From a virus, in UHGV virus genome UHGV-0298867: DNA of 55,178 nt, one strand, 5' to 3'. A program made the translations under genes and the position numbers. This document shows positions 6,127-21,556 of this stretch, in pieces (position 1 is the first letter of the stretch; each line of letters starts with the position of its first letter). The notes below the pieces were generated by a model. That model made no database searches and was not told where the DNA came from. It saw nothing but the letters and a program-made list of their open reading frames with translations.

Positions 6127-6507
6127 ATGTTCAACCCTGATAAATACCGTTCAGTCACCTGGCTGAAGGGCGGGCGCGTATACCCGCAACTCGACTGTTT
6201 CGGCATTGTGAACGAGATACGCCGCGATCTGAATTTACCCGTCTGGCCCGATTTTGCCGGGGTAACCAAAGACGACGGCGGCCTCGACCGGGAAGCGCGC
6301 CGGATGATGCTTACCCTTGAGCGCTGCGAACCCTGCGAAGGGGCCGGGGTGGCCTGTTATTCCGGGTCGACTGTCACCCACGTAGGGATCGTGGTCAGTA
6401 TCGATGGTCTGCTGCATGTGGCGGAATGCAATCCGGGAACGAACGTCACCTTTCTGCCGTTGCCGCGGTTTAAGCGGCGATTTGTCAAAGTGGAGTTCTG
6501 GCAATGA
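6127..6507 (+). CDS. NlpC/P60-family cysteine peptidase tail protein (gpK C-terminal-domain-like)
   Basis: The Cys in DCFGIV and the His in THVGIV match the NlpC/P60 catalytic signature. Its stop overlaps the start of the next gene (ATGA). Confidence 0.7.
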   Translation: MFNPDKYRSVTWLKGGRVYPQLDCFGIVNEIRRDLNLPVWPDFAGVTKDDGGLDREARRMMLTLERCEPCEGAGVACYSGSTVTHVGIVVSIDGLLHVAECNPGTNVTFLPLPRFKRRFVKVEFWQ

Positions 6508-9500
6508 CTATTCGTTTTTACCCGTCCCGGCTTCCCGGTGAACCACTCGAAACGCATGAGCATGGTGTAACCAGTATTCGCAGCTGGCTGGTGGCAAATG
6601 TTGAAGGCTACGAGGATCGGGATGTCCCACCGCTGACCGTTGAGGTTGAGGGGCTGTTAATTCCGCCAGGCGAGTGGGCTAAGTGTGTGATTCGCCCTGA
6701 TAGTGATGTCAGGCTTTATCCGGTTCCCTTCGGGCTGGAGGCCGCCACAATCGCGTGGATCGGCGTCGGTATCTCCGTTGCCGCTGCAGCCTATTCGTAC
6801 TTTATGATGAGCAACATCGATACGGGCGGCTATACCTCATCCACAGGGCGAAGTCTCGACCTGAACCCGGCAAAGGCGAATACCGCAAAACTCGGTGATG
6901 CCATTCGTGAGGTATTTGGCCGGGTGCGTATCTACCCTGATTATGTGGTGCAGCCGGTTACCCGGTTTGATGCCGCCGATCCTACGAAAATGCGCGTCCA
7001 GATGCTGCTGTGTCTCGGTGTCGGTGATCTGATTTATACCAATGGCGATATCAGGGTTGGCAGTACGCCAGCTTCAACGCTACCGGGATTCAGCAGCACC
7101 CATTACCCGCCAGGCGCGGACGTTTCCGGTGATGAGCGCAGCGAAAACTGGGTCAACTCCACCGAAGTGAGCGGGACGTCATCCGGCACCGGGCTGGATA
7201 TGGCCCAGACGTCGCCGGACGCAGACGACATTATCGCAGACAGCATGACCGTCTCCGGATCGAGCGTGACGTTTACCGGGCTGGACACGGATGATGATGA
7301 CGATAATGACGAGAACGATAACGCACTGCCGCCCAGCTGGGTCGCTGGCGCCGTGGTCGAACTTAAAGCCCCGGCGAACTACCAGATCACCACGGCGGCC
7401 GGATACAGCGTTATCGCAAGCCCGCTGCTGACGGAGATCGCGCCGGTAGTAGGTATGCCGGTGACGCTGGGGTTTAACTCTGTCGATTACGATCTGTTTA
7501 TCGCGTCATATACCCCCGGTCAGGCTGCAGTGCCCGGCACCGGGGGGAGTGCGGCAAAAGTCCAGGCGAGTGCGGCCCCGACCACCTACGATTTTTCGAC
7601 CAGCTCCAGCACGTTCACGATCACCTGGCAGGGGGTTAGCTACCCGGTGTCGCTGGTGGCTAACTACGTCTCGATGTCGGGACTGCTGGCGGCCATCACC
7701 GAGGGACTCACCGGCTCCGGCCTGGTTGCGCAGGACAACGGCGGCACCGTACTGATAACCGAGTCGGCCAGTCCGTTCGCGGGTGGGGCGATCACGTCCT
7801 CTTCGCTGCCTGCAGCTGTTTTCGGTGATGCCCCGGTTTACACCTCCGGCACGGCATCAACCGGCGGCAGCCCGGCGGTAACGGCGAATGTGACACTCGC
7901 CTATAACTCTGCCACGGGCACCGCATTCTCCGGGATGCCGGAGGGGGTGCAACGGCTTTCACTTGCTCACCGCGGGAATGAGTACCGGATTGTGTCAGCT
8001 GACGGCACGACGGCGACGGTGGCGCGCCTGGTTTCCGGTGCCGTTGATGAGTCATGGCCGGGATTCACCGCTAGGACGATGATCGACTATGAGGCTTCTG
8101 GCCTTAACGACACGCTGGGCTGGCTGGGGCCTTTCCTCGTATGCCCTGAGAATGAAGTGGTGGATGCATTCGAGGTGAATTTCTCCTTCCCGAACGGCAT
8201 CTGTGGCTTTGACAGCAAGGGGAAAAAGCGGCTTCGGCATGTTGAGTGGGAGATTCAGTATCGCGCCTACGGTTCCGGATCGGGGTGGGTGAGTCACCAG
8301 GGAGAGTATGCGCTTAAAAACGTCAACGGGCTGGGATTCACTGAGCGGATCACCCTCAGCTCACCAGGGCTGGTAGAGGTTCGCTGTCGCCGGCGCAATG
8401 AGCAGGGCTCAAACAACGCCAGGGATTCGATGTACTGGCAGGCACTGCGCGGGAGACTGCTGACGCGCCCTTCATCCTATCCCGGCGTGTCGCTGATGGC
8501 GGTGACCGTTGAGACGGGGGGCAAATTGGCGGCTCAGTCGGACCGCCGCGTAAACGTTGTGGCCACGCGGGCCTATGACTCAGGAACGGCCAGAACCATT
8601 TCGGGAGCGCTGCTGCATGTCGCGAACTCTCTTGGGCTGGAAATGGATGTCGACACCATCAACGCGTTGGAATCCGCGTACTGGACGCCACGGGGCGAAA
8701 ATTTCGATTTCGCCACGGGCGACAGTATCTCGGCGCTGGAAATGCTGCAGAAGATAGCCAATGCCGGGAAGTCACGTTTTCTGCTGAGTGATGGCCTGGC
8801 GACGGTCAACCGCGAGGGGATTAAGCCATGGACCGGTGTGATCACTCCGCATGAGATGGTGGAGGAGCTGCAGAGCGGATTTACCGTGCCCTCAGATGAT
8901 GATTTTGATGGTGTCGACGTGACGTACATCAACGGGACTACCTGGGCAGAGGAGACCGTTAAGTGCCGGACGCCTGATAATCCCACGCCGGTGAAAATCG
9001 AGAACTACAAACTCGATGGGGTACTGAATCAGGATCACGCCTACCAAATCGGGATGCGTCGCCTTATGAAATACCTGCAGCAGCGGGTGACGTTCCAGAC
9101 CACTACCGAGCTGGACGCGCTGTGCTACAACACGGGCGATCGCATTGTGCTCACGGATGATATTCCGGGTAACAACACAATTTCCTGTCTGGTGGAGGCG
9201 ATGACAACGGCTGGTGGCGTGACAACGTTCACCGTTACGGAGCCGCTGGACTGGTCTTTCGAAAATCCCCGAGCGCTGATCCGCTATCAGGATGGCTCTG
9301 CATCCGGGCTGATGGTGGCGAGCAGGGTGGGCGATTTTCAGTTGTCAGTCCCGCACCTGAGCGAGTTTGATGACCCGATGAAGGTTGACCTGTCGTCGGC
9401 AACCATCGAACCGATCCGCCTGGTGTTCTGTGGCTCAACGCGCCACGTCTACGACGCCATTGTAGAGGAGATCGCCCCGCAGTCAGACGGAACCTGTCAG

Positions 9501-9572
9501 GTCACCGCTAAAGAATACCTCGAATCGTTCTACCAGTACGACGACGCCACATACCCCGGCGACGTCGCGTAA
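6504..9572 (+). CDS. Tail tip / host specificity protein J-like (1022 aa) with an N-terminal gpI-like region
   Basis: Size and position at the end of the tail-tip module. The N-terminus resembles gpI and the C-terminal region resembles gpJ. Contains a poly-acidic linker DDDDDNDENDN. Confidence 0.8.
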   Translation: MTIRFYPSRLPGEPLETHEHGVTSIRSWLVANVEGYEDRDVPPLTVEVEGLLIPPGEWAKCVIRPDSDVRLYPVPFGLEAATIAWIGVGISVAAAAYSYFMMSNIDTGGYTSSTGRSLDLNPAKANTAKLGDAIREVFGRVRIYPDYVVQPVTRFDAADPTKMRVQMLLCLGVGDLIYTNGDIRVGSTPASTLPGFSSTHYPPGADVSGDERSENWVNSTEVSGTSSGTGLDMAQTSPDADDIIADSMTVSGSSVTFTGLDTDDDDDNDENDNALPPSWVAGAVVELKAPANYQITTAAGYSVIASPLLTEIAPVVGMPVTLGFNSVDYDLFIASYTPGQAAVPGTGGSAAKVQASAAPTTYDFSTSSSTFTITWQGVSYPVSLVANYVSMSGLLAAITEGLTGSGLVAQDNGGTVLITESASPFAGGAITSSSLPAAVFGDAPVYTSGTASTGGSPAVTANVTLAYNSATGTAFSGMPEGVQRLSLAHRGNEYRIVSADGTTATVARLVSGAVDESWPGFTARTMIDYEASGLNDTLGWLGPFLVCPENEVVDAFEVNFSFPNGICGFDSKGKKRLRHVEWEIQYRAYGSGSGWVSHQGEYALKNVNGLGFTERITLSSPGLVEVRCRRRNEQGSNNARDSMYWQALRGRLLTRPSSYPGVSLMAVTVETGGKLAAQSDRRVNVVATRAYDSGTARTISGALLHVANSLGLEMDVDTINALESAYWTPRGENFDFATGDSISALEMLQKIANAGKSRFLLSDGLATVNREGIKPWTGVITPHEMVEELQSGFTVPSDDDFDGVDVTYINGTTWAEETVKCRTPDNPTPVKIENYKLDGVLNQDHAYQIGMRRLMKYLQQRVTFQTTTELDALCYNTGDRIVLTDDIPGNNTISCLVEAMTTAGGVTTFTVTEPLDWSFENPRALIRYQDGSASGLMVASRVGDFQLSVPHLSEFDDPMKVDLSSATIEPIRLVFCGSTRHVYDAIVEEIAPQSDGTCQVTAKEYLESFYQYDDATYPGDVA

Positions 9573-9601
9573 TACCCTATAACAACCCCTAATTAACTCT
9601 T

Positions 9602-9652
9602 TTCGCTCAAACCCTCGTTTGGGCGAAGCCTCTTTTTGGAGCAAAAAACATG
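9602..9652. repeat. Left inverted repeat of the invertible segment. It contains the 26-bp hix/gix-like crossover site TTCGCTCAAACC-CT-CGTTTGGGCGAA (9602-9627), plus the 5' UTR and ATG of the downstream fibre gene.
   Basis: 50/51 nt identical to the reverse complement of 14640-14690. The 26-bp site has 12-bp half-sites around a 2-bp core, as hix/gix sites do. Confidence 0.8.
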
Positions 9653-10393
9653 GCCCTGACTCCTCCACTCGGCTCGACGACACCAGAGGTCTTGTTACGT
9701 AATGCTGGCGATCTTGATCGCGCCATGAACAGTGAAGATGATACCTGGCAAAACCGAGGTGGTGATGAGCTCCCCACCATGAAGGGATATCAGAAACAGG
9801 TGGATGCCATCACTGATGATGTTTTTCAGGCCAGGGATACGGCTGTTGAAGCAGCTGCAACGTTACCCACAAAACAACAATTCCTTGAGCTACAGGTGGA
9901 AGTCGACGGTATCACGGCCGATCCTGCAAACGCGATTGCAAACATTACCATTCCGGCGAAAGACTTTGACCTTGCTGTAGGGAGTGCCAGTTTTGGCATG
10001 ATAGCCAGTCGCCTCGCGGGCTGGCAGTTCACTCATGGGGTAAACGCATCCATCACCAAAATGATAGACCTGCCGTCTCACTGGTCAAAAATGCGTATAT
10101 CCCTGATCTGGACAAACCTCGTTGCTAACAACAATTTCAATGTGAGCCTTTCAGGTGAGCGGCATAGCTGGTCTGCCGGTGAGTCTTTCAATCAGGAGCC
10201 TGCAGGTTATGCTGCGGTCGTTCCGGTTAATGGCACACCGTTTATTGCAGTGGAAACACAATTAGCGCTTGATCTCACCGTTGACCCTACACGGCATACT
10301 ACCCTTCGCATCGGACGAAATGGCGCGTCTTCCAGCGATACCCTGCCCACTGCCATCGCATTACTCGCCGTCAGACTGACAAAGGTGGCTTAA
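9650..10393 (+). CDS. Tail fibre/spike N-terminal anchor-domain protein (247 aa), module A of the switchable receptor-binding cassette
   Basis: The N-terminus MALTPPLGSTTPEVL is shared with the convergent 868-aa fibre (MAELNPPLGTTTPEIF). It lies immediately downstream of the J-like gene and inside the IR-bounded segment. Confidence 0.6.
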   Translation: MALTPPLGSTTPEVLLRNAGDLDRAMNSEDDTWQNRGGDELPTMKGYQKQVDAITDDVFQARDTAVEAAATLPTKQQFLELQVEVDGITADPANAIANITIPAKDFDLAVGSASFGMIASRLAGWQFTHGVNASITKMIDLPSHWSKMRISLIWTNLVANNNFNVSLSGERHSWSAGESFNQEPAGYAAVVPVNGTPFIAVETQLALDLTVDPTRHTTLRIGRNGASSSDTLPTAIALLAVRLTKVA

Positions 10394-11629
10394 ATGAGTG
10401 TTTACCAGTCATGGCGGACGGCCTGGCGAACACCAGGCGTGTTAAGAAATTATCCTCCTAATCCGCTTTATGTGGATACGGTCAGAGGAAAAGCGTCGGG
10501 AAAAGGGTCAGTCGATGATCCAGTGAACAGCCTCGGTCTGGCGCAGGGGTTATGCCTCGGTCTTTCCGATTATGAAATAAAGATTATTGCCCCGGAAAGT
10601 TCTCCACTACGACAGGAGGTTGTATTTAACACCACCGAGAATGTGACCTTATCAGGCGTTGATGGTGAACCGTGGTACACCTTTGGATCTGAAGAACATA
10701 CATCCGGGTGGACTCAGAACGGTCAGATTTTTCAGAAAACACTGGGGTATACCTCTGTGCTTCAGGTGGTCGTTACATCAATGACGGAGACGGTCGGTGA
10801 CAGAGATGATTTTCTTTTTAAACTACTACAAAACACCTCCACGCCGACCACGCCAGCAGCTGGTGAGTATGGATATGCAGGAGGCATTATTTATGTCCGG
10901 TTACCGGATGATTCAGACCCTGCTCTGCACTCGATTGAAATATCCCGGCGTAATTTTGGGGTAGCGACAACCGGGTTTGGACTCCTTACGGTGAATGACT
11001 GTATCGCGCGCTATTGCATGATTAATGGCATTTCCTGCGGGTTATCCACGCAACCGGCAGGCACCGGCTTCCTGACCGTCAATGACTCCGTTATTGAGTA
11101 CTGTGCGAATGCCGGTGTTGGTGGTACGGGGCGAAATGAGTTGATAATCTGTAATAACGTGCGTGCCTGGCGGATTTCAAATGATGGCTTCGGGCAGCAT
11201 GCGCCTGTAGGCGGTGCCGGAAAAATGATCCTGAATGGCTGTAATGGTAGTTATAACGGCGATCAGGCCGGTCAGTCTGCCCAGGGGGCTTCAAACCATG
11301 AGTTTACGAAAATGGTAATCAACGGAGGGACATTCAATTTTAATGTCTCAGGCGGAATGGTGGCTATTGAAAATGCGCAGTGTGATATTCACGGCGACAC
11401 AAAATACGGGCCTGTTGTGATGGACGGGAATATGAGGCTGGGGAATACGGCAGGAACTATCGCCAGCCAGGCTGGATGCGCCTGGCTGAACTATGCCACT
11501 GGGATAGTGACGGGAGATGTAACCGTTAAAAACGGTCAAGGTGTCGGCGTTCGCCGTGGGCCAGATGCCATCGTGGAAGGTATCGCAACGATCCACTCAA
11601 TCAACAACGCACTGCCGGATATTTTGTGA
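10394..11629 (+). CDS. Right-handed beta-helix (pectate-lyase-like) receptor-binding or depolymerase-like tailspike protein (411 aa)
   Basis: Repeated beta-helix rungs (NDCIARYCMINGISCG, NDSVIEYCANAGVGG, ICNNVRAWRISNDGFG). It has its own RBS AAGGTGG. It is in the same frame as the upstream ORF, separated from it by a single TAA. Confidence 0.65.
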   Translation: MSVYQSWRTAWRTPGVLRNYPPNPLYVDTVRGKASGKGSVDDPVNSLGLAQGLCLGLSDYEIKIIAPESSPLRQEVVFNTTENVTLSGVDGEPWYTFGSEEHTSGWTQNGQIFQKTLGYTSVLQVVVTSMTETVGDRDDFLFKLLQNTSTPTTPAAGEYGYAGGIIYVRLPDDSDPALHSIEISRRNFGVATTGFGLLTVNDCIARYCMINGISCGLSTQPAGTGFLTVNDSVIEYCANAGVGGTGRNELIICNNVRAWRISNDGFGQHAPVGGAGKMILNGCNGSYNGDQAGQSAQGASNHEFTKMVINGGTFNFNVSGGMVAIENAQCDIHGDTKYGPVVMDGNMRLGNTAGTIASQAGCAWLNYATGIVTGDVTVKNGQGVGVRRGPDAIVEGIATIHSINNALPDIL

Positions 11630-11636
11630 GGTAAAA

Positions 11637-11852
11637 ATGACAGTATGCAGATTGTGTCAGTGTGAGCCAATGGTGATGACAAAGCCGGAAACCGATGGAA
11701 TCACCTATTTTTATGTGCATTATGTGGAATGTTCCGGATGTGGCATAGGAACAAAACGGTTTTCTGAGCAAATGATGGAGGCTGAGGCCGCTATCAGCCA
11801 GGCTTCAGAACAGTGGGAGCTGATGAATATAACGGTTCCTGACATCAGATAG
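11637..11852 (+). CDS. Lar-family restriction alleviation-like zinc-ribbon protein (71 aa)
   Basis: CRLCQC...YFYVHYVECSGCG...SEQW fits the Lar/RalR pattern CxxCxC...C..C...A..W. The ATG at 11637 lies 8 nt after the spike-gene stop. Confidence 0.5.
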   Translation: MTVCRLCQCEPMVMTKPETDGITYFYVHYVECSGCGIGTKRFSEQMMEAEAAISQASEQWELMNITVPDIR

Positions 11853-12007
11853 ACGATATGCGGCTCCTGTCACGTACGTTATTTAACGAGCCTCCCGGCG
11901 ACCTTGTTGCACTCTAAAGACGAGAAACATCTGGAAACACCAGGAATTTTCTTAGAAGATACTCGATGCGCAAAGACGCACACAGCAATAATGTCATTCA
12001 GTATTTT

Positions 12008-12037
12008 CCCCCGGCGTGCCTCCGGGGGCGTTTTTTT
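12008..12037 (+). terminator. Intrinsic terminator CCCCCGG-CGTGCCT-CCGGGGG-CG-TTTTTTT, at the convergence point of modules A and B
   Basis: A 7-bp GC stem with a 7-T run. The stop codon of the minus-strand fibre gene (12036-12038) overlaps the T-run. Confidence 0.7.
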
Positions 12038-14642
12038 AAAGCATATTCACAACGCTTGCCATTCTCCGGGCTATCAACTCTCCGCCAGCGGCATTCGGAT
12101 GCAGGTTATCCCCGGTATAGAGACTCAGGTTATAGAGATTTATTCCGCTTTCAGCAAACAAATCGCAGACTGGCACACTGAATAACGCGCACACTTCTCT
12201 AATGGCCTGCACGTACTGTGGCAACGTAAAGCCCGCTGAGTTCGCCGCCGGATAAACCGGCTGGCTTTCAAATGTACCTCGTTTCATCGGCGTACTGAAC
12301 ATCACTCGTACCGTTGGTTTCAGGGTATAGATTTTGTTCAATACGAAGAACACGTCGTAATAAAACGATTTAACCGTCGTATCATCATAATCCGCCCTGG
12401 CGTCTGCAATTGTCCCGAGCCGGCGATTTCCCCCGTAATCGTTCGTCCCTCCCAGAATCGAAATGAAATCCATCGCATCAATAGTGGTGGCGTTGAGTGA
12501 ATCAGCCATCGTTCTGACTCCCTGACCAGGTACGCCATAATTGGCAATCTGGCGCATACCAGTCCGGGAAAGTAGTGGCGCAATGTAATTCCCCGTGTTT
12601 GTTATGCTGTCACCAAGGAATCCGATCCCCTTTCCCTGCCAGGGCAATTCCTGCCCCTGCCCACCGAAAGGAACATATCCAGCAGGAACAGCCTGACCAG
12701 GTGAAACCATCAGGCTGTTCAGGCGTGTCAGGTTGTAGACCTGGAACCGAACAAAATATGCATTATCAGGAACAGCATAAGGCGTATTTGCGACCAGATT
12801 CTGGAAGCCGCTGAGGAAGGTGCCGTCAATTTTATAGAATGCGCCGCCACCTGAGCCATACGTAGAAACGAACCAGTCTCCAGGAGTGACCATCATCATT
12901 GGCGTTGCGAAGTACCCCGGTGAAGAGGTTAGCCCGCCGGTCTGATAAGAAACGCCCCTGTCTGTCTGGGCGAGTTCGCTGTTATAGAGATTCACCGACA
13001 CTTTTTGCAGGGACAGTGCGACCGAGCGCGCTACAGTCAGCGATTTTGTATCAACGTAAGTTGACGTCGGCGAACCAAACGACAGGTAGCTCGCAGGGAG
13101 TGCTGAGCCTTCAACCATCATCAGTGTGTTTTTTGCTGAAAGACCGTATACCTGAAACCGGACATAAACCGCACCAGATGGCGTGGTAAAAACGGTTCCG
13201 GCAGCAATAGTGGTGTTCAAAATTTTGGTTTTGTTGATATCAAAATAGACAACCACACCTGATGCACTGCTTGCGATGTATTGCGTGTTAGGTTTTACCG
13301 GGATAAATGGCGTGACAAAATATCCGGATGCCACATAGGGCGCTCCAGTAGTCGCCAGCGCATAATTATCCAGCGCAACATCCTTGTTGAACATATTGCG
13401 TATGGCGGCCAGAGTACCGTCCGCAATTCCCCAGCTGATTGACTGGGTGATTGCCGTTGCCTCTGCAGTTGTCAGCGCGCCAAACCCCAAATAAGATGAC
13501 GGCAGAGAGGTTCCGCGAACAACCATCAGACTTTCTTTACCCGATAGCGGTGTGCTCTGGAAACGCAGGTAACAGGAACCAGTCGGAACGGTAAAGGTCG
13601 TTGCAGCAGCGACAGTGATATTTGACGTTTTGCTCAGGTCAGGATCATAGAAGCATAATACCTGCGTACCAGATGAGAGGATGTAACTCTCTCCGGGAAG
13701 GACCGGGATATAGTCAGTAACAAAATAGCTGGCATTTGCCGTCAGACTGCCGTTAGTCGAGAGCGCATATCCGTCGTTAGCCCGGTTTTTATCAAACAGG
13801 TTTCGTACCAGAGCGTTCGCTCGTGAGCTAATATCAATTGCCTGCTCCAGGGCAGTTCGTTTGGCGGAGAAAGGGTCGACCAGACCGGCCCCAATGTGAC
13901 CAGCAGGAAGAGAAGTACCTTTAATTAGCATCTGTCCGGATTTGCCAGTGCTCAGCGTCTGCGAGAACCGGATATAACGAGTCCTGGCTGGCGTGGTAAA
14001 AACGGTTCCGGCAGTGGCGCCTGCAACATAGGAAATGAAATTGCCCTGTAAATCATAAAATGCCAGTTGTGACACATTCACAGCGAAAACATACTGCGTA
14101 CCGTCGAGTGCGGGTATCATGTCACTCACAAAGTACGCCGCATTTGCGACCAGCGAGCCGGTAGAGCCAACCGCAAAACCATCCGTAGTCCGCTCTTTGT
14201 CGAAATAGTTAATGACCAGTGAGCCGCGCCCTACATCAGAATAAATCTGCCCAGTCACCGCACTGACAGAATCCAGATATGACTTAGACGGCATCTGCCG
14301 CCCGGTAGGCTGCAACGTCCCACCGTTGTTGATTACCTCAAGAGCCAGCGCGCTATCGTCCGGGCTGCGGTAATACGTCGTAGAGCCCACCGGAATATTC
14401 GCGATATCCGCCTGCGCCGCAGCCAGCGTCGCATACTGGCGGCTGAGAGGAATCAGATTCTGTCGTGTCTCCTCTGTAAGGGCTTCATTCTTCGCCATCA
14501 TTCCGCGCCAGGTATCGAGCGGTTCACCGCCGCGGTCGTCAACCGTTCCTGCCGGACCGTTAACCAGTTCGTCAGCGCGCTTAACGTTGTCCATGAATAT
14601 TTCCGGCGTCGTCGTGCCCAGTGGCGGGTTAAGTTCGGCCAT
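12036..14642 (-). CDS. Tail fibre (868 aa), module B. It has an N-terminal anchor, four tandem ~110-aa repeat (carbohydrate-binding-like) domains, and a C-terminal SGNH/GDSL esterase domain.
   Basis: GDSIT (block I), GTND (block III) and DNLHPN (block V) are SGNH hydrolase motifs. The four repeats have the form F(D/N)K..DGYA..TGSL.AN..YFV..IP...F..P.G..Y.RFQ. Confidence 0.8.
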   Translation of the reverse strand: MAELNPPLGTTTPEIFMDNVKRADELVNGPAGTVDDRGGEPLDTWRGMMAKNEALTEETRQNLIPLSRQYATLAAAQADIANIPVGSTTYYRSPDDSALALEVINNGGTLQPTGRQMPSKSYLDSVSAVTGQIYSDVGRGSLVINYFDKERTTDGFAVGSTGSLVANAAYFVSDMIPALDGTQYVFAVNVSQLAFYDLQGNFISYVAGATAGTVFTTPARTRYIRFSQTLSTGKSGQMLIKGTSLPAGHIGAGLVDPFSAKRTALEQAIDISSRANALVRNLFDKNRANDGYALSTNGSLTANASYFVTDYIPVLPGESYILSSGTQVLCFYDPDLSKTSNITVAAATTFTVPTGSCYLRFQSTPLSGKESLMVVRGTSLPSSYLGFGALTTAEATAITQSISWGIADGTLAAIRNMFNKDVALDNYALATTGAPYVASGYFVTPFIPVKPNTQYIASSASGVVVYFDINKTKILNTTIAAGTVFTTPSGAVYVRFQVYGLSAKNTLMMVEGSALPASYLSFGSPTSTYVDTKSLTVARSVALSLQKVSVNLYNSELAQTDRGVSYQTGGLTSSPGYFATPMMMVTPGDWFVSTYGSGGGAFYKIDGTFLSGFQNLVANTPYAVPDNAYFVRFQVYNLTRLNSLMVSPGQAVPAGYVPFGGQGQELPWQGKGIGFLGDSITNTGNYIAPLLSRTGMRQIANYGVPGQGVRTMADSLNATTIDAMDFISILGGTNDYGGNRRLGTIADARADYDDTTVKSFYYDVFFVLNKIYTLKPTVRVMFSTPMKRGTFESQPVYPAANSAGFTLPQYVQAIREVCALFSVPVCDLFAESGINLYNLSLYTGDNLHPNAAGGELIARRMASVVNML

Positions 14643-14690
14643 GTTTTTTGCTTCAAAAAGAGGCTTCGCCCAAACGAGGGTTTGAGCGAA
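14640..14690. repeat. Right inverted repeat of the invertible segment. It contains the 26-bp hix/gix-like site (14665-14690) and the start codon (minus strand) of the module B fibre.
   Basis: Its reverse complement equals 9602-9652 with one mismatch. The IR ends exactly at the outer edge of the 26-bp site. Confidence 0.8.
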
Positions 14691-14733
14691 TGGCCGCGGC
14701 TTTTTACAATCAGCTATTTCAAGGAGTTAGATA

Positions 14734-15282
14734 GTGCTGATTGGCTATGCTCGGGTATCAACCGGGGATCAAAACCTCGATTTACAGAAAAATGCGCTGA
14801 TTCGCGCAGAATGTGAGCTGATTTACGAGGATACGGCGAGCGGAAAGAATGCCCGGCGGGCTGGGCTAAAGCGCGCGCTGCGGCAGCTAAAGCCGGGTGA
14901 TGTGCTGGTGGTCTGGAAACTGGATAGGTTGGGGCGCAGCGTGCGGGATTTAATCACGTTGGTGTCAGAGCTGCAGGCGCGTGGGGTGAACTTTCGAAGC
15001 CTGACTGACTCGATCGACACATCAACGGCCGCGGGGCGTTTCTTCTTCCACGTCATGAGCGCGCTGGCAGAGATGGAACGAGAGCTGATTGTGGAGAGGA
15101 CCCGCGCAGGACTGGTGGCGGCGAGAGAGCAGGGGCGTATCGGCGGACGTCGCCGGGTAATGACTGAAGAAGTGGTGGAGCGGTGCCGCAGAATGCTGGA
15201 GAACGGCGCTACCCGGCAGCAGGTAGCCGATGTGATAGGTGTAGACGTGAAAACAATCTACAAGTACCTCCCGGCGACTTGA
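14734..15282 (+). CDS. Serine DNA invertase of the Hin/Gin/Cin/Pin family (GTG start, RBS AAGGAG)
   Basis: MLIGYARVSTGDQNLDLQ...GRFFFHVMSALAEMERELI...GRIGG matches Gin (MLIGYVRVSTNDQNTDLQ...GRFFFHVMGALAEMERELI) almost throughout. The gene abuts IR-R. Confidence 0.95.
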   Translation: MLIGYARVSTGDQNLDLQKNALIRAECELIYEDTASGKNARRAGLKRALRQLKPGDVLVVWKLDRLGRSVRDLITLVSELQARGVNFRSLTDSIDTSTAAGRFFFHVMSALAEMERELIVERTRAGLVAAREQGRIGGRRRVMTEEVVERCRRMLENGATRQQVADVIGVDVKTIYKYLPAT

Positions 15283-15359
15283 AGGCAAAGATTTCACTAC
15301 TTTTCCTGATATGTTACGTTTGGCTTAATCAATTCATTCAGCTTTGAAAACAGTTTGGT

Positions 15360-15782
15360 TTGTTCGTGAACGGTAAGAAAACAATAAGTTTTGAGCAATT
15401 TTTAACTATTAACAGCAATCTTGTTTCCATCTCAGATACATGGGCTGACTTGTGGGCGTTAATTTTTCACACGGGTTTAAGCGCTGGAAGGCTGCTGAGT
15501 ATTCGATATGATGATATTGATGGTGACTTGATACTGATACGAAAACAGGGTCACCTGAAGGAGCTACGTGTTAAATCAACCCCTCCAGTGGAGGCGATGA
15601 TTGCTCGTAGAAGAGAACGCTATCCAGAAGATGTTTTTTTATTTCAGAGCCATTCTAACCGTGTGAAGTACCAACGCCGGCCGGTCACTATAATTGCTTT
15701 CAACGCCGCTTTACGTCGCGCCGCTAGATCATTACCAGACGTTAACGTAAGCAGTAGTAGCGCGAGAAACATACCGGACTAA
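15360..15782 (+). pseudogene. Fragment of a small FimB/FimE-like tyrosine recombinase. It lacks both the N-terminal part and the C-terminal H-R-H-Y region.
   Basis: HTGLSAGRLLSIRYDDIDGDLILIRKQGHLKELRV has the first catalytic Arg and the Lys box of tyrosine recombinases. The ORF ends before the HxLRH and Tyr motifs. Confidence 0.45.
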
Positions 15783-15796
15783 CCGCCTGTCCAGTC

Positions 15797-15855
15797 GCGT
15801 GTGGCCGATGTGACAGGCGTGGGGGGGGAAGACTATTTACAAATATTTGCCAGTA
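15797..15855 (+). pseudogene. Degenerate relic copy of the invertase 3' end
   Basis: GGCCGATGTGACAGGCGTGG...ACTATTTACAAATATTT aligns with the invertase C-terminus GTAGCCGATGTGATAGGTGTAGACGTGAAAACAATCTACAAGTACCT (15222-15270). Confidence 0.55.
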
Positions 15856-15864
15856 CAATACGGC

Positions 15865-15970
15865 GATAAAAAATCCCCTTGAGCAGGCACACTCAAGGGG
15901 AAAATACTACATAACATCATTGCTGTGTGCGTCTTTGCGCTCGTCTATCTTCCAAGAAGATGCCTAAAGC
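15865..15970 (-). repeat. Inverted, diverged copy of the fibre-end/terminator region 11890-12037. It includes a conserved terminator hairpin (15875-15900) with its T-run on the minus strand.
   Basis: The reverse complement of 11935-12037 aligns with 15868-15945 (GGGGAAAATACT..ATTGCTGTGTGCGTCTTTGCGC). The stem differs by compensatory changes. Confidence 0.55.
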
Positions 15971-16010
15971 TTCCAGATATTTCTGGTCTGAGCAGTTAAA
16001 ACATTGGTTT

Positions 16011-16070
16011 GGTAGCCGATGTGATAGGAGTGGGAGTAAAGACGATTTATAAATATTTTCCAGCCGGTTA
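16011..16070 (+). pseudogene. Second degenerate relic of the invertase 3' end
   Basis: GTAGCCGATGTGATAGGAGTGGGAGTAAAGACGATTTATAAATATTTTCC aligns with the invertase C-terminal coding sequence. Confidence 0.55.
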
Positions 16071-16294
16071 AGTTTGCTCACCTGCGAACCGTATGCAAGA
16101 GATCGCAGGTGAGCAATTTGCTATTAAGGCATTGCCATAGCTGAAAAATTTTAACCTCGCATTGTTCGCAAAACCATCAAACAGCTAAGGCCTGAAAACA
16201 CTTTCAGACTAACCTTACTCGTTACATCAATGTGTTACGGCAATGACAAAAATTTATAGCCAGAACCTATATTGATCTGTCGTCCTGTTAAAAC

Positions 16295-16314
16295 TACTGT
16301 ATATAAAAACAGTA
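16295..16314. promoter_or_regulatory. LexA (SOS) box TACTGTATATAAAAACAGTA upstream of umuD
   Basis: A perfect CTGT-N8-ACAG palindrome matching the consensus TACTGTATATATATACAGTA, 20 nt upstream of the umuD ATG. Confidence 0.85.
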
Positions 16315-16334
16315 TTAATCTGAGCGAGTCAATT

Positions 16335-16754
16335 ATGCAGTTTTACACGCCCGTTGAGTTACGTGAGATCATGCTGATCCCGTTGTACAGTGACCTTGTG
16401 CAATGTGGTTTTCCAAGCCCTGCACAGGATTACGTTGAGCAACGCATCGATCTGAACGAGTTGCTCGTTAACCACCCCAGTGCGACGTATTTTGTCAAAG
16501 CCGCCGGCGACAGCATGAAGGATGCCGGCATAGGAGAAGGTGATCTTCTTGTTGTGGATAGCTCAAGGACAGCAGTTCATGGCGATATCGTTATCGCTGC
16601 AGTGGATGGGGAATTCACCGTTAAGAAGCTGCAGCTGCATCCGCGGGTTCAGCTTAACCCAATGAACCCTGCATATTCGCCGATAGTCGTCGGTAGTGAG
16701 GACACTCTCGACGTGTTCGGGGTGGTTACGTACATCATCAAATCAGCTGGCTGA
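16335..16754 (+). CDS. umuD: UmuD (DNA polymerase V accessory subunit, S24 LexA-like peptidase)
   Basis: [61 protein letters not shown] is near-identical to E. coli UmuD, including the CG cleavage site and the Ser and Lys catalytic residues. Confidence 0.95.
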
Positions 16755-16755
16755 G

Positions 16756-18021
16756 ATGTTTGCACTTTGCGATGTGAACTCATTTTACGCATCCTGCGAA
16801 ACTGTTTTCCGTCCTGACCTGAAGGGGCGTCCGGTGGTCGTTCTGTCAAACAACGACGGCTGTGTGATCGCCCGCTCGCAAGAGGCGAAGCCCTTCGTCA
16901 AAATGGGCGAGCCTTATTTCAGGCAAAAGGACATGTTTCGCCGGCACGGTATTATCGCGTTTAGCAGCAACTATGAGCTTTATGCCGATATGTCCAACCG
17001 AGTGATGACAACGCTGGAGGAACTCTCTCCACGCTGCGAAATTTACAGTATTGATGAGGCATTTTGCGACCTGGCAGGAGTTCGGAATTGTCGCGACCTT
17101 ACCGACTTTGGCAGGGAAATTCGCGAGACGGTTCTGCGCAGGACGCACCTCACGGTCGGTGTCGGCATAGCCCAGACTAAAACCCTGGCAAAGCTGGCCA
17201 ATCACGCGGCGAAACAGTGGCAGCGGCAGACCGGAGGAGTGGTGGATCTGTCTAATCTGGAAAGACAGAGAAAGTTGATGGCTTTGCTTCCGGTGGATGA
17301 GGTCTGGGGAGTCGGGCGCCGCATCAGTAAAAAACTGGAGGCAATGGGCATTAAAACAGTGCTTCAACTGGCTGATACCGATATCCGTTTTATCCGGAAG
17401 CATTTTAATGTGGTTCTGGAGCGAACCGTGCTGGAGCTGCGAGGCGAACCATGCCTCGGGCTGGAGGAGTTCGCGCCGGTAAAGCAGGAGATTGTCTGTA
17501 GTCGCAGCTTTGGGCAGCGGATTTCCACCTACGAAGAGATGCGCCAGGCAATATGCAGCTACGCATCGCGCGCAGCGGAGAAACTCCGTGGTGAGCACCA
17601 GTATTGCAGATTTATCTCCGTATTTGTTAAAACCAGCCCCTTTGCGTTGAATGAACCGTACTACGGGAACAGCGCATCAGTAAAGCTGCTAACTCCAACC
17701 CAGGACAGTCGGGACATAATTACCGCGGCGACGAAATGCCTCGATGTAATCTGGCGAGACGGACATTGCTACCAAAAAGCAGGAGTGATGCTCGGGGATT
17801 TCTTCAGCCAGAGCGTAGCGCAGCTTAACCTCTTCGATGATAACGCACCACGGAAGAACAGTGAAAAGCTTATGGAAGTTCTCGACCACCTCAACGCAAA
17901 GGATGGCAGGGGGACGCTATATTTTGCTGGGCAGGGGATCCAGACTGCCTGGCAGATGAAGCGAGAAATGCTATCACCTCGATACACCACGAGATATAGT
18001 GACTTGATTAAAATCAGATAA
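16756..18021 (+). CDS. umuC: UmuC (DNA polymerase V catalytic subunit, Y-family)
   Basis: MFALCDVNSFYASCETVFRPDLKGRPVVVLSNNDGCVIARS... matches E. coli UmuC along its whole length. It starts 1 nt after the umuD stop. Confidence 0.95.
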   Translation: MFALCDVNSFYASCETVFRPDLKGRPVVVLSNNDGCVIARSQEAKPFVKMGEPYFRQKDMFRRHGIIAFSSNYELYADMSNRVMTTLEELSPRCEIYSIDEAFCDLAGVRNCRDLTDFGREIRETVLRRTHLTVGVGIAQTKTLAKLANHAAKQWQRQTGGVVDLSNLERQRKLMALLPVDEVWGVGRRISKKLEAMGIKTVLQLADTDIRFIRKHFNVVLERTVLELRGEPCLGLEEFAPVKQEIVCSRSFGQRISTYEEMRQAICSYASRAAEKLRGEHQYCRFISVFVKTSPFALNEPYYGNSASVKLLTPTQDSRDIITAATKCLDVIWRDGHCYQKAGVMLGDFFSQSVAQLNLFDDNAPRKNSEKLMEVLDHLNAKDGRGTLYFAGQGIQTAWQMKREMLSPRYTTRYSDLIKIR

Positions 18022-19364: not shown

Positions 19365-19407
19365 AGTTAGCAAAAAATAGTCAATCATAAGGGAATATAT
19401 GACAACT

Positions 19408-19974
19408 TTATTTAGCTGAGTTTTCTATCAGTTCTGGCCCCTTAGTCTTCACGTTACCCACCGCGCGGGATACAGGGTGCCAGGTGAATTGATCTGCTGG
19501 CACTGTACCATTTGCTGTTATCTCCTCCGCCTCTTTACCTCCTACATCCTGCTTCATCTCCGCGCTCGAAAGGGACGCTGCCAATAGTCGCCATGAAGAT
19601 GGGCTTGCCGTCTTTACGGTGAATGAAGTAAGGCTGTTTCTTGTCGCCTTCTTTTTCCATTCGAACCATCCATCAGCAAAGCAGATCGCCCGGCCATGTT
19701 GCCAGAGAGGTTTAAACATTCTACTAGCGGCTGCCGTTTAGACGCGTGCGTTAATCAGAGGCGGTTTATCCCACCACCCGGGTGCGTAACCCCAGTGAAC
19801 CGGATCGAGGTGCAGCTGTTCGTCTCGTTCGCTCAGGAGCAAAACTTTAGTCCCCGGCGCCACGTTGTAACGCCAAATCGGCTCAGGGTCGTATGCGATG
19901 TCTCGCTCGGCTTCATCCGCCAGGTATACCAGATATTCTTCACGGGTTTGTGATTGAGCAAAGCGTCCGCACAT
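19408..19974 (-). pseudogene. yedK: SOS-response-associated peptidase (SRAP, YedK-like) pseudogene. It has a nonsense codon after INARV, a +1 frameshift in a poly-A tract after EWKK, and a ~100-nt internal deletion.
   Basis: The N-part MCGRFAQSQTREEYL...PPLINARV* and the C-part MFKPLWQHGRAICFADGWFEWKK... match E. coli YedK. The alternate frame restores EGDKKQPYFIHRKDGKPIFMATIGSVPFERGDEA. Confidence 0.85.
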
Positions 19975-20368
19975 GGTTACCTCCAGTCTTCAGACTGAAA
20001 GTATAGAAGGTGTGGAGGAAACGTAGGAAGGGAACTCCGACAGCCATCTAACTGATGACTGTCGGAGATGACGTCAAAAACAATGTGTACAAAATTGTGT
20101 ATTAAAATCAGGAAAATTGCACAATTTGAAAATTTAACTCATTGTTTTTAATTGACAAAAACATTTATTTTGTAGGTGCTATCGTAGGGCATATGAATCC
20201 GTTTTAAGTTTGTTAGTCATGCTTTAAGTCTTTTCAAAAATCCCGCTAATACCAACACATTGCCAGCATTCAGTGCTTTAATTTTGTGTGTTCTGCATTG
20301 ATTTGAAGGTTATCAATTTAACCAAAATGTGTACACTGATGTGTATATCATCTTCCGGAGTGTACACA

Positions 20369-21556
20369 TTGCTTACCGACACAAAATTAAGAAAAGCTCT
20401 TGGCAAAAAGAGAGACCAGATCGAGGTCATATCGGACGCTCATGGTCTGAATGTCCGGTTGTCTACTTCCGGCAGTATAACATTCTTTTACCGCTACAGA
20501 TGGAACGGGAAAGCCGCTCAGCTAACGATTGGCGATTATCCCACCACCTCCTTATCTCAAGCTCGCGAACGTAGACAGCAGTTCAGGGCGTGGTTGACAG
20601 AAGGACTCGATCCGAGACGGCAAATAGTTCTGGAGAAACAGAAAAAAGTCGAAGCGCTCACCGTTAAAGAGGCTTTCGATTACTGGGAAAAGTATTACTG
20701 CATCCCTGAAGGTCTTGTGAAAATCAAGGTTAACCGACGGGACTTCAATAACCATATAGCGCCTGTGCTGGGGAACATGATTGTTGATCAGACCACTAAA
20801 GCGCACTGGCTTAACCTTTTTGATGGCATGGGGCGAAGAGTTGTCACTGGTCAGATGCTTGGGCTGATGCAGCGTACGTTCCGTTTTTGCTCCAATCGAG
20901 GGGTCATTAATGTGAACCCAATTGAGAGCCTTAGGCGCTCTGACGTAGGTCTCACAGCATCCGTTAAAGATCGCAGATTGAGTGATGAGGAAATCAAAAC
21001 AGTTTGGAATATCCTTCCTGAATTGAAGTACAGACAACAGCTGATAATGAAGTTTCTCATCATGACTGGCTGCAGGAGTACAGAGATCAGGACAGCAAGA
21101 TGGGAGTGGTTCGATTTCCATGAGCAAACTTGGACCATTCCGGCAAGTGATTATAAAACCGGTAAATCGGTCAGAAGGGCACTTCCCGAGGCAGTAGTAA
21201 GAATGATGTTAGCAGAGAAGGAAACGTCAGTTTCAAAACACGTTGTGACACTGTCACGCTACAGGGGGCCAGAAGATGACAGACCGCCACTACAACCAAA
21301 CGTCGCTCTGTTTTCTGCTCAGATTATAGCTAAAACAGGCATGAAACCCTGGTCTCTCCATGACCTCAGGCGAACAGTGGCGACACGCCTTTCTGAATTA
21401 GGTGCGCCGCCACATGTTGTGGAAAAACTGCTTGGCCATCATATGGCAGGTGTCATGGCACGTTATAACCTGCATGATTATCTGGATGATCAGCGTCACT
21501 GGCTTGCTGTTTGGCAGGATCACCTTGAGAAGCTGGTTGGTCAGCCTCTGGTTTAA
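20369..21556 (+). CDS. int: Tyrosine integrase, P4-type. Probable TTG start at 20369 (MLTDTKLRKAL...). The ORF is open from 20288, with alternative ATGs at 20327 and 20339.
   Basis: An LTDTKLRKA N-terminus is typical of P4-family integrases. The C-terminus has HDLRRT...GH...ARY (R-H-R-Y catalytic residues). Confidence 0.9.
   Translation: MLTDTKLRKALGKKRDQIEVISDAHGLNVRLSTSGSITFFYRYRWNGKAAQLTIGDYPTTSLSQARERRQQFRAWLTEGLDPRRQIVLEKQKKVEALTVKEAFDYWEKYYCIPEGLVKIKVNRRDFNNHIAPVLGNMIVDQTTKAHWLNLFDGMGRRVVTGQMLGLMQRTFRFCSNRGVINVNPIESLRRSDVGLTASVKDRRLSDEEIKTVWNILPELKYRQQLIMKFLIMTGCRSTEIRTARWEWFDFHEQTWTIPASDYKTGKSVRRALPEAVVRMMLAEKETSVSKHVVTLSRYRGPEDDRPPLQPNVALFSAQIIAKTGMKPWSLHDLRRTVATRLSELGAPPHVVEKLLGHHMAGVMARYNLHDYLDDQRHWLAVWQDHLEKLVGQPLV

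Follow-up and report, generated by a model that had tools for sequence, protein, structure and literature searches.

How did the DNA behind the invertase gene of an invertible fibre segment come to hold repeated ends of that same gene? In the virus genome UHGV-0298867, whose 55,178 nucleotides form the window analyzed here, the invertase is followed by two degenerate repeats of its own 3' end, an open reading frame related to tyrosine recombinases (ORF140) and an inverted copy of a fibre terminator region (Table 1). The original prediction explained this field as debris from repeated cassette exchange or inversion at the invertase end of a shufflon. In our analysis, the region 15283-16120 is probably a layered mosaic joint, located where the fibre/invertase module ends on the right in a temperate Klebsiella siphophage, in which some parts are leftovers and others are conserved.

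Table 1. Positions of the features in the window that bear on the origin of the region behind the invertase
Feature	Position	Strand	Remarks
Left inverted repeat of the invertible fibre segment	9602..9655		holds the 26-bp crossover site 9602-9627
Possible micro-remnant of a type A invertase end (CCTCCCGGCGACCTTG), 16 nt	11890..11905	+	score 25, z = 5.6
X(+), second X copy, inside the invertible segment	11918..12042	+	
Right inverted repeat of the invertible fibre segment	14637..14690		holds the crossover site 14665-14690
Intact serine DNA invertase	14734..15282	+	182 aa
Spacer between invertase and ORF140	15283..15359		pi = 0.156 (window and 34 same-layout relatives)
ORF140	15360..15782	+	140 aa, TTG start; GTG at 15366 is the start annotated in one relative
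E1, dead remnant of a type B invertase 3' end	15797..15862	+	
X(-), conserved non-coding module	15866..16006	-	invariant core (GCGCAAAGACGCACACAGCAAT.ATGT.AT)
E2, remnant of a type C invertase 3' end	16009..16070	+	
Perfect 14-bp hairpin	16074..16116	+	inverted repeat I22; no T run after it

First, the nature of the switch itself could be defined. The invertase (Pfam Resolvase, 6e-48, and HTH_7, 2e-7; phrog_125 DNA invertase, 6e-84) stands beside a fibre segment bounded by a 54-nt inverted-repeat pair (I1) that is 98% complementary, and a pattern search at up to 3 mismatches found exactly two crossover sites in the window. With a serine invertase and an inverted pair of crossover sites around alternative fibre genes, the segment is of the Gin/Cin/Pin type, the inversion itself being predicted. 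Like the known Gin/Cin/Pin/Hin segments (Mu G, P1 C, e14 P and p15B Min), it joins a Resolvase and HTH_7 serine invertase to an adjacent inverted-repeat segment, 26-bp imperfectly palindromic crossover sites and alternative fibre genes on opposite strands; in contrast with them, its inverted repeat includes a ribosome-binding site and ATG, so that whole fibre genes, and not C-terminal parts only, would be exchanged. Shufflons such as that of R64 have several sfx sites and an active Rci, and FimB and FimE are proteins of about 200 aa with the full R-K-H-R-H-Y set. Our locus resembles these systems only in having DNA rearrangement near adhesin or fibre genes and a tyrosine-recombinase-related protein, whereas it has two sites, a serine invertase that is not of the Rci type, and an ORF140 without the catalytic residues. 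It is therefore not a shufflon.

Second, the invertase does not appear to have made the scars. Unlike the switch, the field behind the gene lies outside the inverted repeats, and no rearrangement is predicted for it: half-site scoring of 15200-16200 revealed no crossover site above background, and none was present 3' of the invertase in any of 76 related loci (0/76), so relatives gave no sign of a second invertible cassette behind the gene. One candidate site at 15992 (AAAACATTGGTTTG) scored 13/24, which was within background, and was rejected. The points at which invertase fragments are truncated in relatives vary (nt 259, 312, 355, 472, 478 and 485-490), and no crossover-like sequence was seen at the relic junctions.

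The two repeats of the invertase 3' end, on the other hand, are genuine. Local alignments were compared with 500 mononucleotide shuffles each, and all scores, including those of the inverted copy discussed below, were far above chance. The template of the repeats is the last ~60 nt of the invertase (15222-15282), a 'type A' end that reads ...KTIYKYLPAT before the stop codon. Aligned with it, the region 15780-15870 scored 28 (shuffles 13.7 +/- 2.1, maximum 22; z = 6.9) and the region 15995-16090 scored 40 (z = 12.6), and the two relics scored 54 against each other (z = 18.7). An independent repeat search recovered the same features as direct families D3, D4 and D6. By eye, weak similarity of E1 may reach back to ~15783.

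Each relic is the real end of an invertase gene in relatives. E1 shares 92% identity with the end of the intact invertase in locus L002 and also aligns with that of L004; in both of these loci, an intact type B end (...KTIYKYLPVQYGDKKSP and the stop codon) is followed directly by X(-) and a relic, whereas in E1 a 1-nt insertion within a run of G disrupts the frame. E2 shows 98% identity to the end of the L003 invertase gene, itself without its first ~70 nt. Its frame is still open (VADVIGVGVKTIYKYFPAG and the stop codon), with a stop codon four codons upstream and X preceding it. The hairpin behind E2 travels with it, and its native position is directly after the type C stop codon, as in L003. 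Both E1 and E2 are thus homologous to an intact gene end, with the rest of the gene gone and with decay, which supports their assignment as invertase 3'-end remnants. We propose that they are decaying sequences without any function in their own right; in particular, the frameshift in E1 suggests that the relics are leftovers of serial replacement of the fibre/invertase module. As E2 is nearly undecayed relative to an intact allele, it must either be recent or have been renewed through recombination. The possible micro-remnant in front of X(+) was absent in front of the X(+) copies of other loci.

Third, the inverted copy of the terminator region proved to be something other than a local inversion product. 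It had been placed at 15865-15970 as a copy of 11890-12037. The copy is real, since the reverse complement of 11850-12045 aligned locally with 15850-16010 at a score of 108 (z = 43), and the repeat search returned the inverted pairs I2 (51 nt, 86%) and I3 (49 nt, 78%); its refined extent is 15866-15990, matching 11918-12042 in inverted orientation. Similarity with small indels could be followed by eye toward 16006 and 11900, so that the copy exceeds the original estimate by about 20-35 nt. For the fibre operon on the plus strand, X(+) provides the 3' region and predicted terminator; it also lies directly against the stop codon of the fibre gene on the minus strand. Most relatives carry X 3' of the invertase, and in other places, such as the virulent Proteus phage Mydo, it lies 3' of fibre genes; its exact core occurs in more than 120 viral contigs and is nearly invariant across 47 unique aligned copies. 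Judged from this distribution, X would be a widespread 3' module of fibre cassettes rather than a local copy.

On the minus strand of X(-), a terminator scan identified a stem of 12 pairs (15901-15874) followed by TTTTTT, which has the form of an intrinsic (Rho-independent) terminator and is predicted to act as one. Three of its pairs were changed on both sides in 5-7 of 17 sequences, that is, in a compensatory manner, and the stop codon of intact type B invertases sits within this hairpin. X may also encode a stable RNA. RNAalifold on MAFFT alignments of X gave a short core stem and the terminator only, and a long-range helix (GAAGAUA/UAUUUUC) fitted most copies with almost no covariation. 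An Rfam 15 scan of 9000-17000 at E <= 1 yielded no match, and a search of the minus strand upstream of X(-) gave no sigma-70 consensus promoter. We also considered, and rejected, the possibility that X codes for a small protein: the frame and stop codon of the ORF vary between copies, and the reverse-strand ATG of X(+) is missing from the X(-) class.

Fourth, ORF140 had been taken for a truncated, FimB-like recombinase carrying a catalytic-domain fragment. Its fold and a remote relation to tyrosine recombinases were borne out. The AF2 model (pLDDT 74.7, pTM 0.72) is predicted to have the fold of a tyrosine-recombinase catalytic domain, the leading Foldseek matches in the PDB being catalytic domains of integrases, Xer and Cre (probability 1.0, TMq 0.61-0.67), and the PHROG integrase profile phrog_1 was matched in part (positions 268-388 of 611) with E = 1e-8. 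The FimB-like identity was not upheld, as the match to Pfam Phage_integrase (PF00589; 12.1 bits, E = 0.16) did not reach the gathering cut-off of 27.1 and catalytic residues are missing. These residues were mapped by motif inspection and the box I/II consensus rather than by structural superposition. In an alignment of 22 family members, box I reads HTGLSAGRLL and has Ser or Gly in the place of Arg-I, the residue of ORF140 being Ser, and the protein ends with VSSSSARN where box II (HxLRH...Y) should begin, with Ser at the box II His; since the end coincides with the start of box II, the Tyr segment is missing in all aligned members. Arg-I, the box II His and the Tyr were lacking in 22 of the 22 members, down to 60% identity.

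A recent truncation is also at odds with the family as a whole. ORF140 matches phrog_19751 over its full length (E = 4e-46), a family with sizes of 138-144 aa down to 60% identity, and its 158 homologues, down to the same identity, are stand-alone proteins of which nearly all have 136-145 aa; none beyond ~145 aa with the missing part was found among them. The dN/dS ratio was 0.09-0.14, with dS saturated. No box II remnant was seen by eye in three-frame translations 3' of the homologues in L005 and L010. ORF140 and its family profile gave only noise against PDB sequences, and neither BLASTP nor hhalign revealed a relationship between ORF140 and the phage's own integrase. From these comparisons, ORF140 appears to be a conserved stand-alone family under purifying selection and not debris, and the loss of catalytic residues appears to be ancient instead of the result of local truncation. 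We suggest that it acts as a DNA-binding or regulatory accessory protein. Precedents exist in SPbeta MrpR/YopR, a demonstrated repressor of ~320 aa with core-binding and catalytic domains (PMC10516654), and in phi3T SroF (PDB 9rd5, rank 47 among the Foldseek fold matches of ORF140), both of which share with ORF140 a tyrosine-recombinase fold without key catalytic residues; unlike MrpR, ORF140 has only 140 aa, which reach from about box I to the point where box II begins, and its DNA binding is putative.

These results bear directly on the view that everything in this field, the ORF among it, is functionless debris left at one end of a shufflon by repeated inversion or cassette exchange. In its favor, both repeats and the inverted copy exist, and X(+) and X(-) do form inverted repeats that enclose the second fibre gene together with the right crossover site and the invertase; however, the distribution of crossover sites in the window, the scar field and the related loci and the strong purifying selection on ORF140 have largely refuted this view. 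A near-invariant X core shared with an unrelated virulent phage also speaks against it, and we consider it highly improbable. What did survive of it is the idea of repeated exchange, because the nested layouts described below and the frameshift in E1 fit repeated module replacement, but ORF140 and X are conserved parts.

Comparison with relatives revealed a nested series of loci. The shortest have the order INV-hairpin-umuDC, the middle ones INV-X(-)-E-umuDC and the longest ones INV-ORF140-E1-X(-)-E2-umuDC, where INV is the invertase and E an invertase end (in fuller notation, INV-E-hp-umuD, INV-E-X-E-... and INV-E-sp-ORF140-E-X-E-(hp)-umuD). The longest layout, that of the window, was observed in ~40 of the 90 loci tallied. 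Loci of the middle and longest types have identical variants of the X/E2 junction. In relatives with longer invertase fragments (starting at nt 259, 312 or 355), other cargo lies between the fragment and the intact invertase, which indicates that the same process recurs with varied endpoints. The cargo of one such locus, L039, comprises a 254-aa ORF and an ORF that looked DinI-like by eye.

Nucleotide diversity, computed over the window and 34 same-layout relatives, differed greatly along the locus. It was 0.13 in the invertase (0.30 at third codon positions), and that of the spacer was as high as the invertase's own (Table 1); it was 0.034 in ORF140 (0.05 at synonymous sites), 0.031 in E1, 0.006-0.08 in X and 0.24 in E2. 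The stretch 15360-15990 is therefore a young low-diversity block with diverged invertase-end homology on both sides. Similarity to L048, L062 and L011 stops at 16061, and that to L048 and L062 resumes upstream of umuD; relatives thus still show a mosaic breakpoint in E2. RecT and an exonuclease VIII-like protein (Exonuc_VIII domain) are both encoded by the phage, so that the diversity profile, the breakpoints and these recombination domains together mark a mosaic block of the kind exchanged by relaxed homologous recombination. Rad52-like phage recombinases act on diverged homology and thereby produce mosaics, in which the edges of the exchanged fragments bear such traces (De Paepe et al., 2014; PMC3945230). 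Our locus resembles such joints in its recently exchanged low-diversity block, its borders of diverged homology and the RecT-type recombinase of the phage. It differs in that the flank consists of stacked truncated copies of one gene's 3' end, and from this relic stack at least two successive replacements can still be read in their nested order.

The same data allowed us to weigh site-specific integration, in which a tyrosine-integrase element, the ancestor of ORF140, would have entered an att site in the invertase 3' end with a replacement end, leaving the relics as attR-like duplicates. As in prophages and islands integrated into gene 3' ends, tandem end copies surround DNA with an integrase-related gene: E1 and E2 start at nearly one invertase position (nt ~470-490), the integrase-derived ORF140 lies 78 nt past the invertase stop codon, and the low-diversity ORF140-E1-X stands between intact and relic ends. 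However, the intact end and E1 share only about 73-78% identity and the copies represent different allelic types, the integrase relative is inactive, with the three catalytic residues absent from every aligned family member and no member longer than ~145 aa that has the missing part, the endpoints vary among the relatives' fragments (nt 259, 312 and 355), the spacer beside ORF140 lacks the low diversity of the block, and no relic follows ORF138 in the INV-X-ORF138 arrangement of K. michiganensis. Such an origin seems very unlikely to us.

Retention of the relics as functional elements, for example as an antisense promoter, the 5' leader of an X RNA or regulatory targets, appears highly improbable. 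All loci of the middle and longest types keep the X/E2 junction, an AT-rich TATAAAT-like stretch is present in the reverse complement of E2, and the low diversity of E1 could in principle reflect function instead of hitch-hiking. Yet the E1 value matches the synonymous diversity of ORF140, E2 is the most variable segment, with different invertase-end types past the same junction, and no consensus promoter was detected.

The layered joint that we favor would have formed as follows, in an order that we infer. The original locus would have had an invertase with a type C end, the hairpin and umuDC. A module with a type B invertase and X(-) would then have replaced everything leftward, with its right junction inside the resident invertase, so that only the last ~60 nt of the latter were left as E2. 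Subsequently, a module with a type A invertase and ORF140 would have replaced the type B invertase and left E1. Because E1 and E2 are homologous to every invertase 3' end, they may serve as short patches of diverged homology, and further exchange would occur at them, probably via RecE/RecT-type recombination of the phage. X(-) would stop leftward minus-strand transcription that otherwise enters the invertase and fibre genes antisense.

Several observations stand against this scheme, among them the failure to find a sigma-70 consensus promoter for minus-strand transcription into X(-), and the low diversity of E1 and near-intact state of E2 noted above. In addition, E1 and E2 both begin within ~20 nt of the single invertase position given above, which is a coincidence for two independent illegitimate junctions; elsewhere, the endpoint is not fixed. 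Moreover, the direction of the series was read from relic decay alone. If it ran the other way, the long layout would be ancestral, and direct invertase-end repeats would have recombined to delete ORF140 and/or X. The ~60-nt direct repeats do flank deletable units, the shorter layouts are exact subsets of the long one, and RecT is encoded by the phage. On the other hand, E1 is frameshifted and decayed in comparison with the intact, longer-coding type B ends of the short layouts, and this 1-nt insertion favors accretion over a deletion series; use of the present-day E1 would usually yield a defective invertase, and the same junction-forming events would still be needed to build the long form. 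We regard the deletion series as distinctly unlikely.

It is also conceivable, if unlikely, that ORF140-E1-X (~630 bp, 15360-15990) is a self-contained accessory cassette spreading among divergent invertase alleles, with the invertase 3'-end homology as portable recombination arms, ORF140 as a domesticated, catalytically dead DNA-binding protein with the tyrosine-recombinase fold, and X as a structured RNA that accompanies receptor-binding cassettes as they move between temperate and virulent phages. As part of such a cassette, ORF140 might modulate fibre inversion, prophage integration/excision or competing integrases.

Since ORF140 and the terminator module are conserved rather than debris, the locus is an ordinary, well-documented case of phage mosaicism and joins the existing understanding unchanged. 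Annotations of Klebsiella prophages should not list the relics as genes, and should call ORF140 neither an integrase nor a pseudogene; in the annotation of one relative, a 41-aa "Hin recombinase" had been derived from a truncated invertase. Our analysis also flags two conserved parts, a dead recombinase-fold protein beside the invertase in dozens of prophages, and a non-coding 3' module of fibre cassettes that is common to a virulent Proteus phage. The locus provides a clear, datable record of receptor-binding module swaps in temperate phages, in which each swap would have left ~60 nt of the previous invertase gene and these leftovers may then guide later exchange.

Our analysis confirmed the original prediction as an observation and found its interpretation to be partly right. 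Downstream of the serine invertase, the two relics of the invertase 3' end (E1 and E2) matched the resident end (type A) with z = 6.9 and z = 12.6, respectively, in local alignments against shuffled controls, and aligned with each other at z = 18.7. Reverse-complemented, the terminator region of the fibre operon matched 15866-15990 with z = 43 against the same kind of control; a repeat search split this inverted copy into two arms (86% and 78% complementary). The window reads like the complete, circularly permuted genome of a temperate Klebsiella siphophage, and in database searches it came closest to Klebsiella prophages and phage-like plasmids.

Positions of the main features (window coordinates unless stated)
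Feature	Position	Description
Tip protein	6504-9572	1022 aa; tail genes extend up to it
Borders of invertible fibre segment	9602-9655 and 14637-14690	54-nt inverted repeats, 98% complementary (repeat search)
X(+)	11918-12042	Module X copy in the invertible segment
Serine invertase	14734-15282	Resolvase and HTH_7 domains; 3' of the fibre segment
ORF140	15360-15782	140 aa
E1	15797-15862	Invertase 3'-end relic
X(-)	15866-16006	Module X copy past the invertase
E2	16009-16070	Invertase 3'-end relic
umuD homologue	16335-16754	Followed by umuC (IMS domains)
umuDC		The umuD homologue and umuC together; beyond the relic region, which follows the invertase
P4-type integrase	20288-21556	
Cargo in relative L039	6872-7915 (L039)	254-aa ORF of unknown function and an ORF DinI-like by eye; between invertase and invertase fragment

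Counterparts of both relics in related loci settled what these are. In plasmid pKPTCM2-4 (L002) and NCTC9793 plasmid 3 (L004), the E1 sequence is the end of an intact invertase, which terminates in KYLPVQYGDKKSP and a stop codon (labelled type B here); X(-) comes immediately after it, and where the window has E2 there is again a relic. The E2 sequence itself ends an invertase gene without its first ~70 nt in pVA126-339 (L003) (type C, 98% identity), and the 16074-16116 hairpin lies directly 3' of this end. Each relic is thus the true end of an invertase allele together with the native downstream sequence of that allele. E2 can still be read as VADVIGVGVKTIYKYFPAG plus stop, but a stop codon four codons upstream cuts it off, and it adjoins module X. 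The frame of E1 is broken by a 1-nt insertion in a G run, which disfavours a pure deletion series as a rival explanation. In Klebsiella phage ST846-OXA48phi9.2, a 41-aa CDS annotated as 'Hin recombinase' (3103-3225) is no more than the 3' end left from an invertase that had its 5' part replaced; the same kind of scar formation has thus produced an artefact of annotation.

We then compared the modules downstream of the invertase in 90 loci, including 80 viral contigs gathered via the invertase protein, and their architectures formed a nested series: INV-E-hairpin-umuD (INV, invertase; E, invertase end or relic), INV-E-X(-)-E-...-umuD and, in about 40 loci, the layout of the window, INV-E-spacer-ORF140-E-X(-)-E-(hairpin)-umuD. 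The same variants of the X-E2 junction occurred in loci of the middle and longest types. Three loci show the same process with other endpoints and other cargo: L039 has an invertase fragment from nt 312, preceded by an intact invertase and its cargo, L020 has fragments beginning at nt 355 and nt 478, and L010 has an internal fragment (nt 259-328). A colicin-immunity-like gene and a small ORF lie between invertase and fragment in L010 (5262-5742). It appears that accessory genes generally tend to insert at the invertase end, as at a hotspot.

Among the window and 34 relatives of the same layout, the invertase had a high nucleotide diversity (0.13, with 0.30 at third codon positions), as did the spacer (0.156); diversity fell sharply to 0.03-0.06 at the start of ORF140, was near zero at 15600-15780 and 15870-15930, and climbed again to 0.17-0.38 at the X-E2 border. 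E1 diversity (0.031) was in line with that of ORF140 at synonymous sites (0.05), which is what a neutral passenger should show. The very high diversity of E2, together with its switches of type, disfavours the possibility that the relics are functional. Similarity of the window to L048, L062 and L011 ends at 16061, the end of E2; these loci share the X junction and continue into a different, type A-like relic, and in L048 and L062 similarity picks up again 5' of umuD. This pattern is that of a young block with diverged homology at its borders, the signature that De Paepe et al. (PMC3945230) ascribe to Rad52-like recombinases of phages acting through relaxed homologous recombination; the phage in the window carries RecT, among RecT/exonuclease VIII-like genes beyond umuDC. 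The best-supported explanation is that the fibre/invertase module was replaced serially, each time with its right-hand junction falling within the invertase gene already in place, and that leftover invertase ends then served for homology-driven exchange.

ORF140 had been predicted to be a truncated FimB-like recombinase. The ORF does exist, and its kinship with tyrosine recombinases is real and remote: its Pfam match was below threshold, a PHROG integrase profile matched at 1e-8, and the top structure matches of its AlphaFold model (pLDDT 74.7) were integrase, Xer and Cre catalytic domains (TMq 0.61-0.67). It is nevertheless conserved and not debris. The match to phrog_19751 covers its full length (E = 4e-46), nearly all of the 158 homologues, from Klebsiella and Raoultella and down to 60% identity, are 136-145 aa long, invariant motifs are present in the family alignment, and dN/dS was 0.09-0.14 (dS saturated) in comparison with the homologues in K. 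michiganensis and in a different K. pneumoniae prophage. Its location is also consistent, always in the accessory region just past the fibre invertase; in K. michiganensis the homologue (ORF138) is the final prophage gene before host DNA, in the order INV-X-ORF138. Several closely spaced TTGGGGCA-like motif copies 3' of this homologue (about 6500-6600 in that locus), just ahead of host DNA, are probably arm-type sites of the integrase at attR; the window lacks this motif and has a different integrase. All 22 aligned members have TGLSAGRLL as box I, with Ser or Gly in the place of Arg-I, and end at SSSSARN, the expected start of box II. Since the protein stops there, the box II His and the Tyr nucleophile are missing, and on this motif reading ORF140 is ruled out as a recombinase. 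Its best precedent is SPbeta MrpR/YopR, a tyrosine-recombinase-fold protein that has lost its catalytic activity and turned into a repressor that binds DNA (PMC10516654); ORF140 is much smaller than MrpR.

The main oddity, namely that the starting points of E1 and E2 in the invertase gene lie no more than about 20 nt apart, would fit site-specific integration with an ancestor of ORF140 as the integrase. The evidence is against this: endpoints vary in other loci, the intact end and E1 are only about 73-78% identical, catalytic residues are lost throughout the family, the K. michiganensis module order differs, and the spacer adjoining ORF140 is highly diverse.

The inverted terminator copy belongs to a widespread non-coding module, X, which is present twice in the window and whose core was found in exact form in more than 120 viral contigs. 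Among the matches listed (81 copies in 80 loci), 58 lay in the full invertase-ORF140-X arrangement, five followed an invertase but had no neighbouring ORF140, and 11 were near neither of the two. In an alignment of 47 unique copies, the core GCGCAAAGACGCACACAGCAAT.ATGT.AT was nearly invariant. Pairing in the terminal hairpin is kept via compensatory changes. X(+)-type copies lie 3' of diverse fibre/chaperone genes within invertible segments, and X(-)-type copies downstream of the invertase; in intact type B invertases the stop codon falls within the hairpin. The hairpin is a canonical terminator on the X strand only (minus strand, 15901-15874), so X(-) is predicted to block leftward antisense transcription into the invertase/fibre genes. 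X may be more than a terminator, e.g. a stable RNA; we found no Rfam match, no conserved ORF and, beyond the terminator itself, no covariation that was convincing. Virulent Proteus phage Mydo (Vequintavirinae; MK024806.1) carries an X copy (3001-3117, 77% identity) in an unannotated gap, 3' of a 1122-aa hypothetical protein and a 70-aa ORF and just 5' of an L-shaped tail-fibre gene, which would reflect passage of the non-coding end of a fibre cassette between temperate and virulent phages. The two phages have unrelated small ORFs ahead of X. In the window, a 71-aa ORF (11637-11852) lies directly 5' of X(+), at the site of small chaperone-like ORFs in relatives, with two CxxC pairs (zinc-ribbon-like by eye); the 103-aa ORF containing it (11541-11852) had no match in Pfam or PHROG.

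Finally, the proposed shufflon and inversion events were not borne out. The entire window has two 26-bp crossover sites, both inside the fibre-segment inverted repeats, and no crossover-like site (up to 4 substitutions) was found downstream of the invertase in 76 loci; there is therefore no second invertible cassette in relatives and no shufflon. No invertase-mediated event is involved in the relic region. In the fibre switch itself, the repeats take in the Shine-Dalgarno and ATG of the first gene on either side (9650, plus strand; 14642, minus strand), so inversion exchanges whole fibre genes while the operon upstream of them stays fixed, whereas in Mu and P1 only C-terminal exons are exchanged. 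The minus-strand fibre protein (12036-14642, 868 aa) has a C-terminal GDSL/SGNH hydrolase domain, and its gene contains three tandem ~405-nt (135-aa) repeats at about 13156, 13561 and 13966. A consensus LexA (SOS) box (TACTGTATATAAAAACAGTA, 16296-16315) lies just 5' of the umuD homologue. A minus-strand ORF (19405-19974, starting MCGRFAQ), which by motif we take to resemble a peptidase of the SOS-response-associated YedK/SRAP type, is interrupted after 78 codons by a TAA in frame and may be a pseudogene.

Of the proposed debris, E1 and E2 are scars that module exchange has left repeatedly, and ORF140 and the terminator copy are conserved functional parts. The phenomenon is ordinary temperate-phage mosaicism, unusually legible here, and the ORF140 family and module X are the sole parts that deserve experiment.
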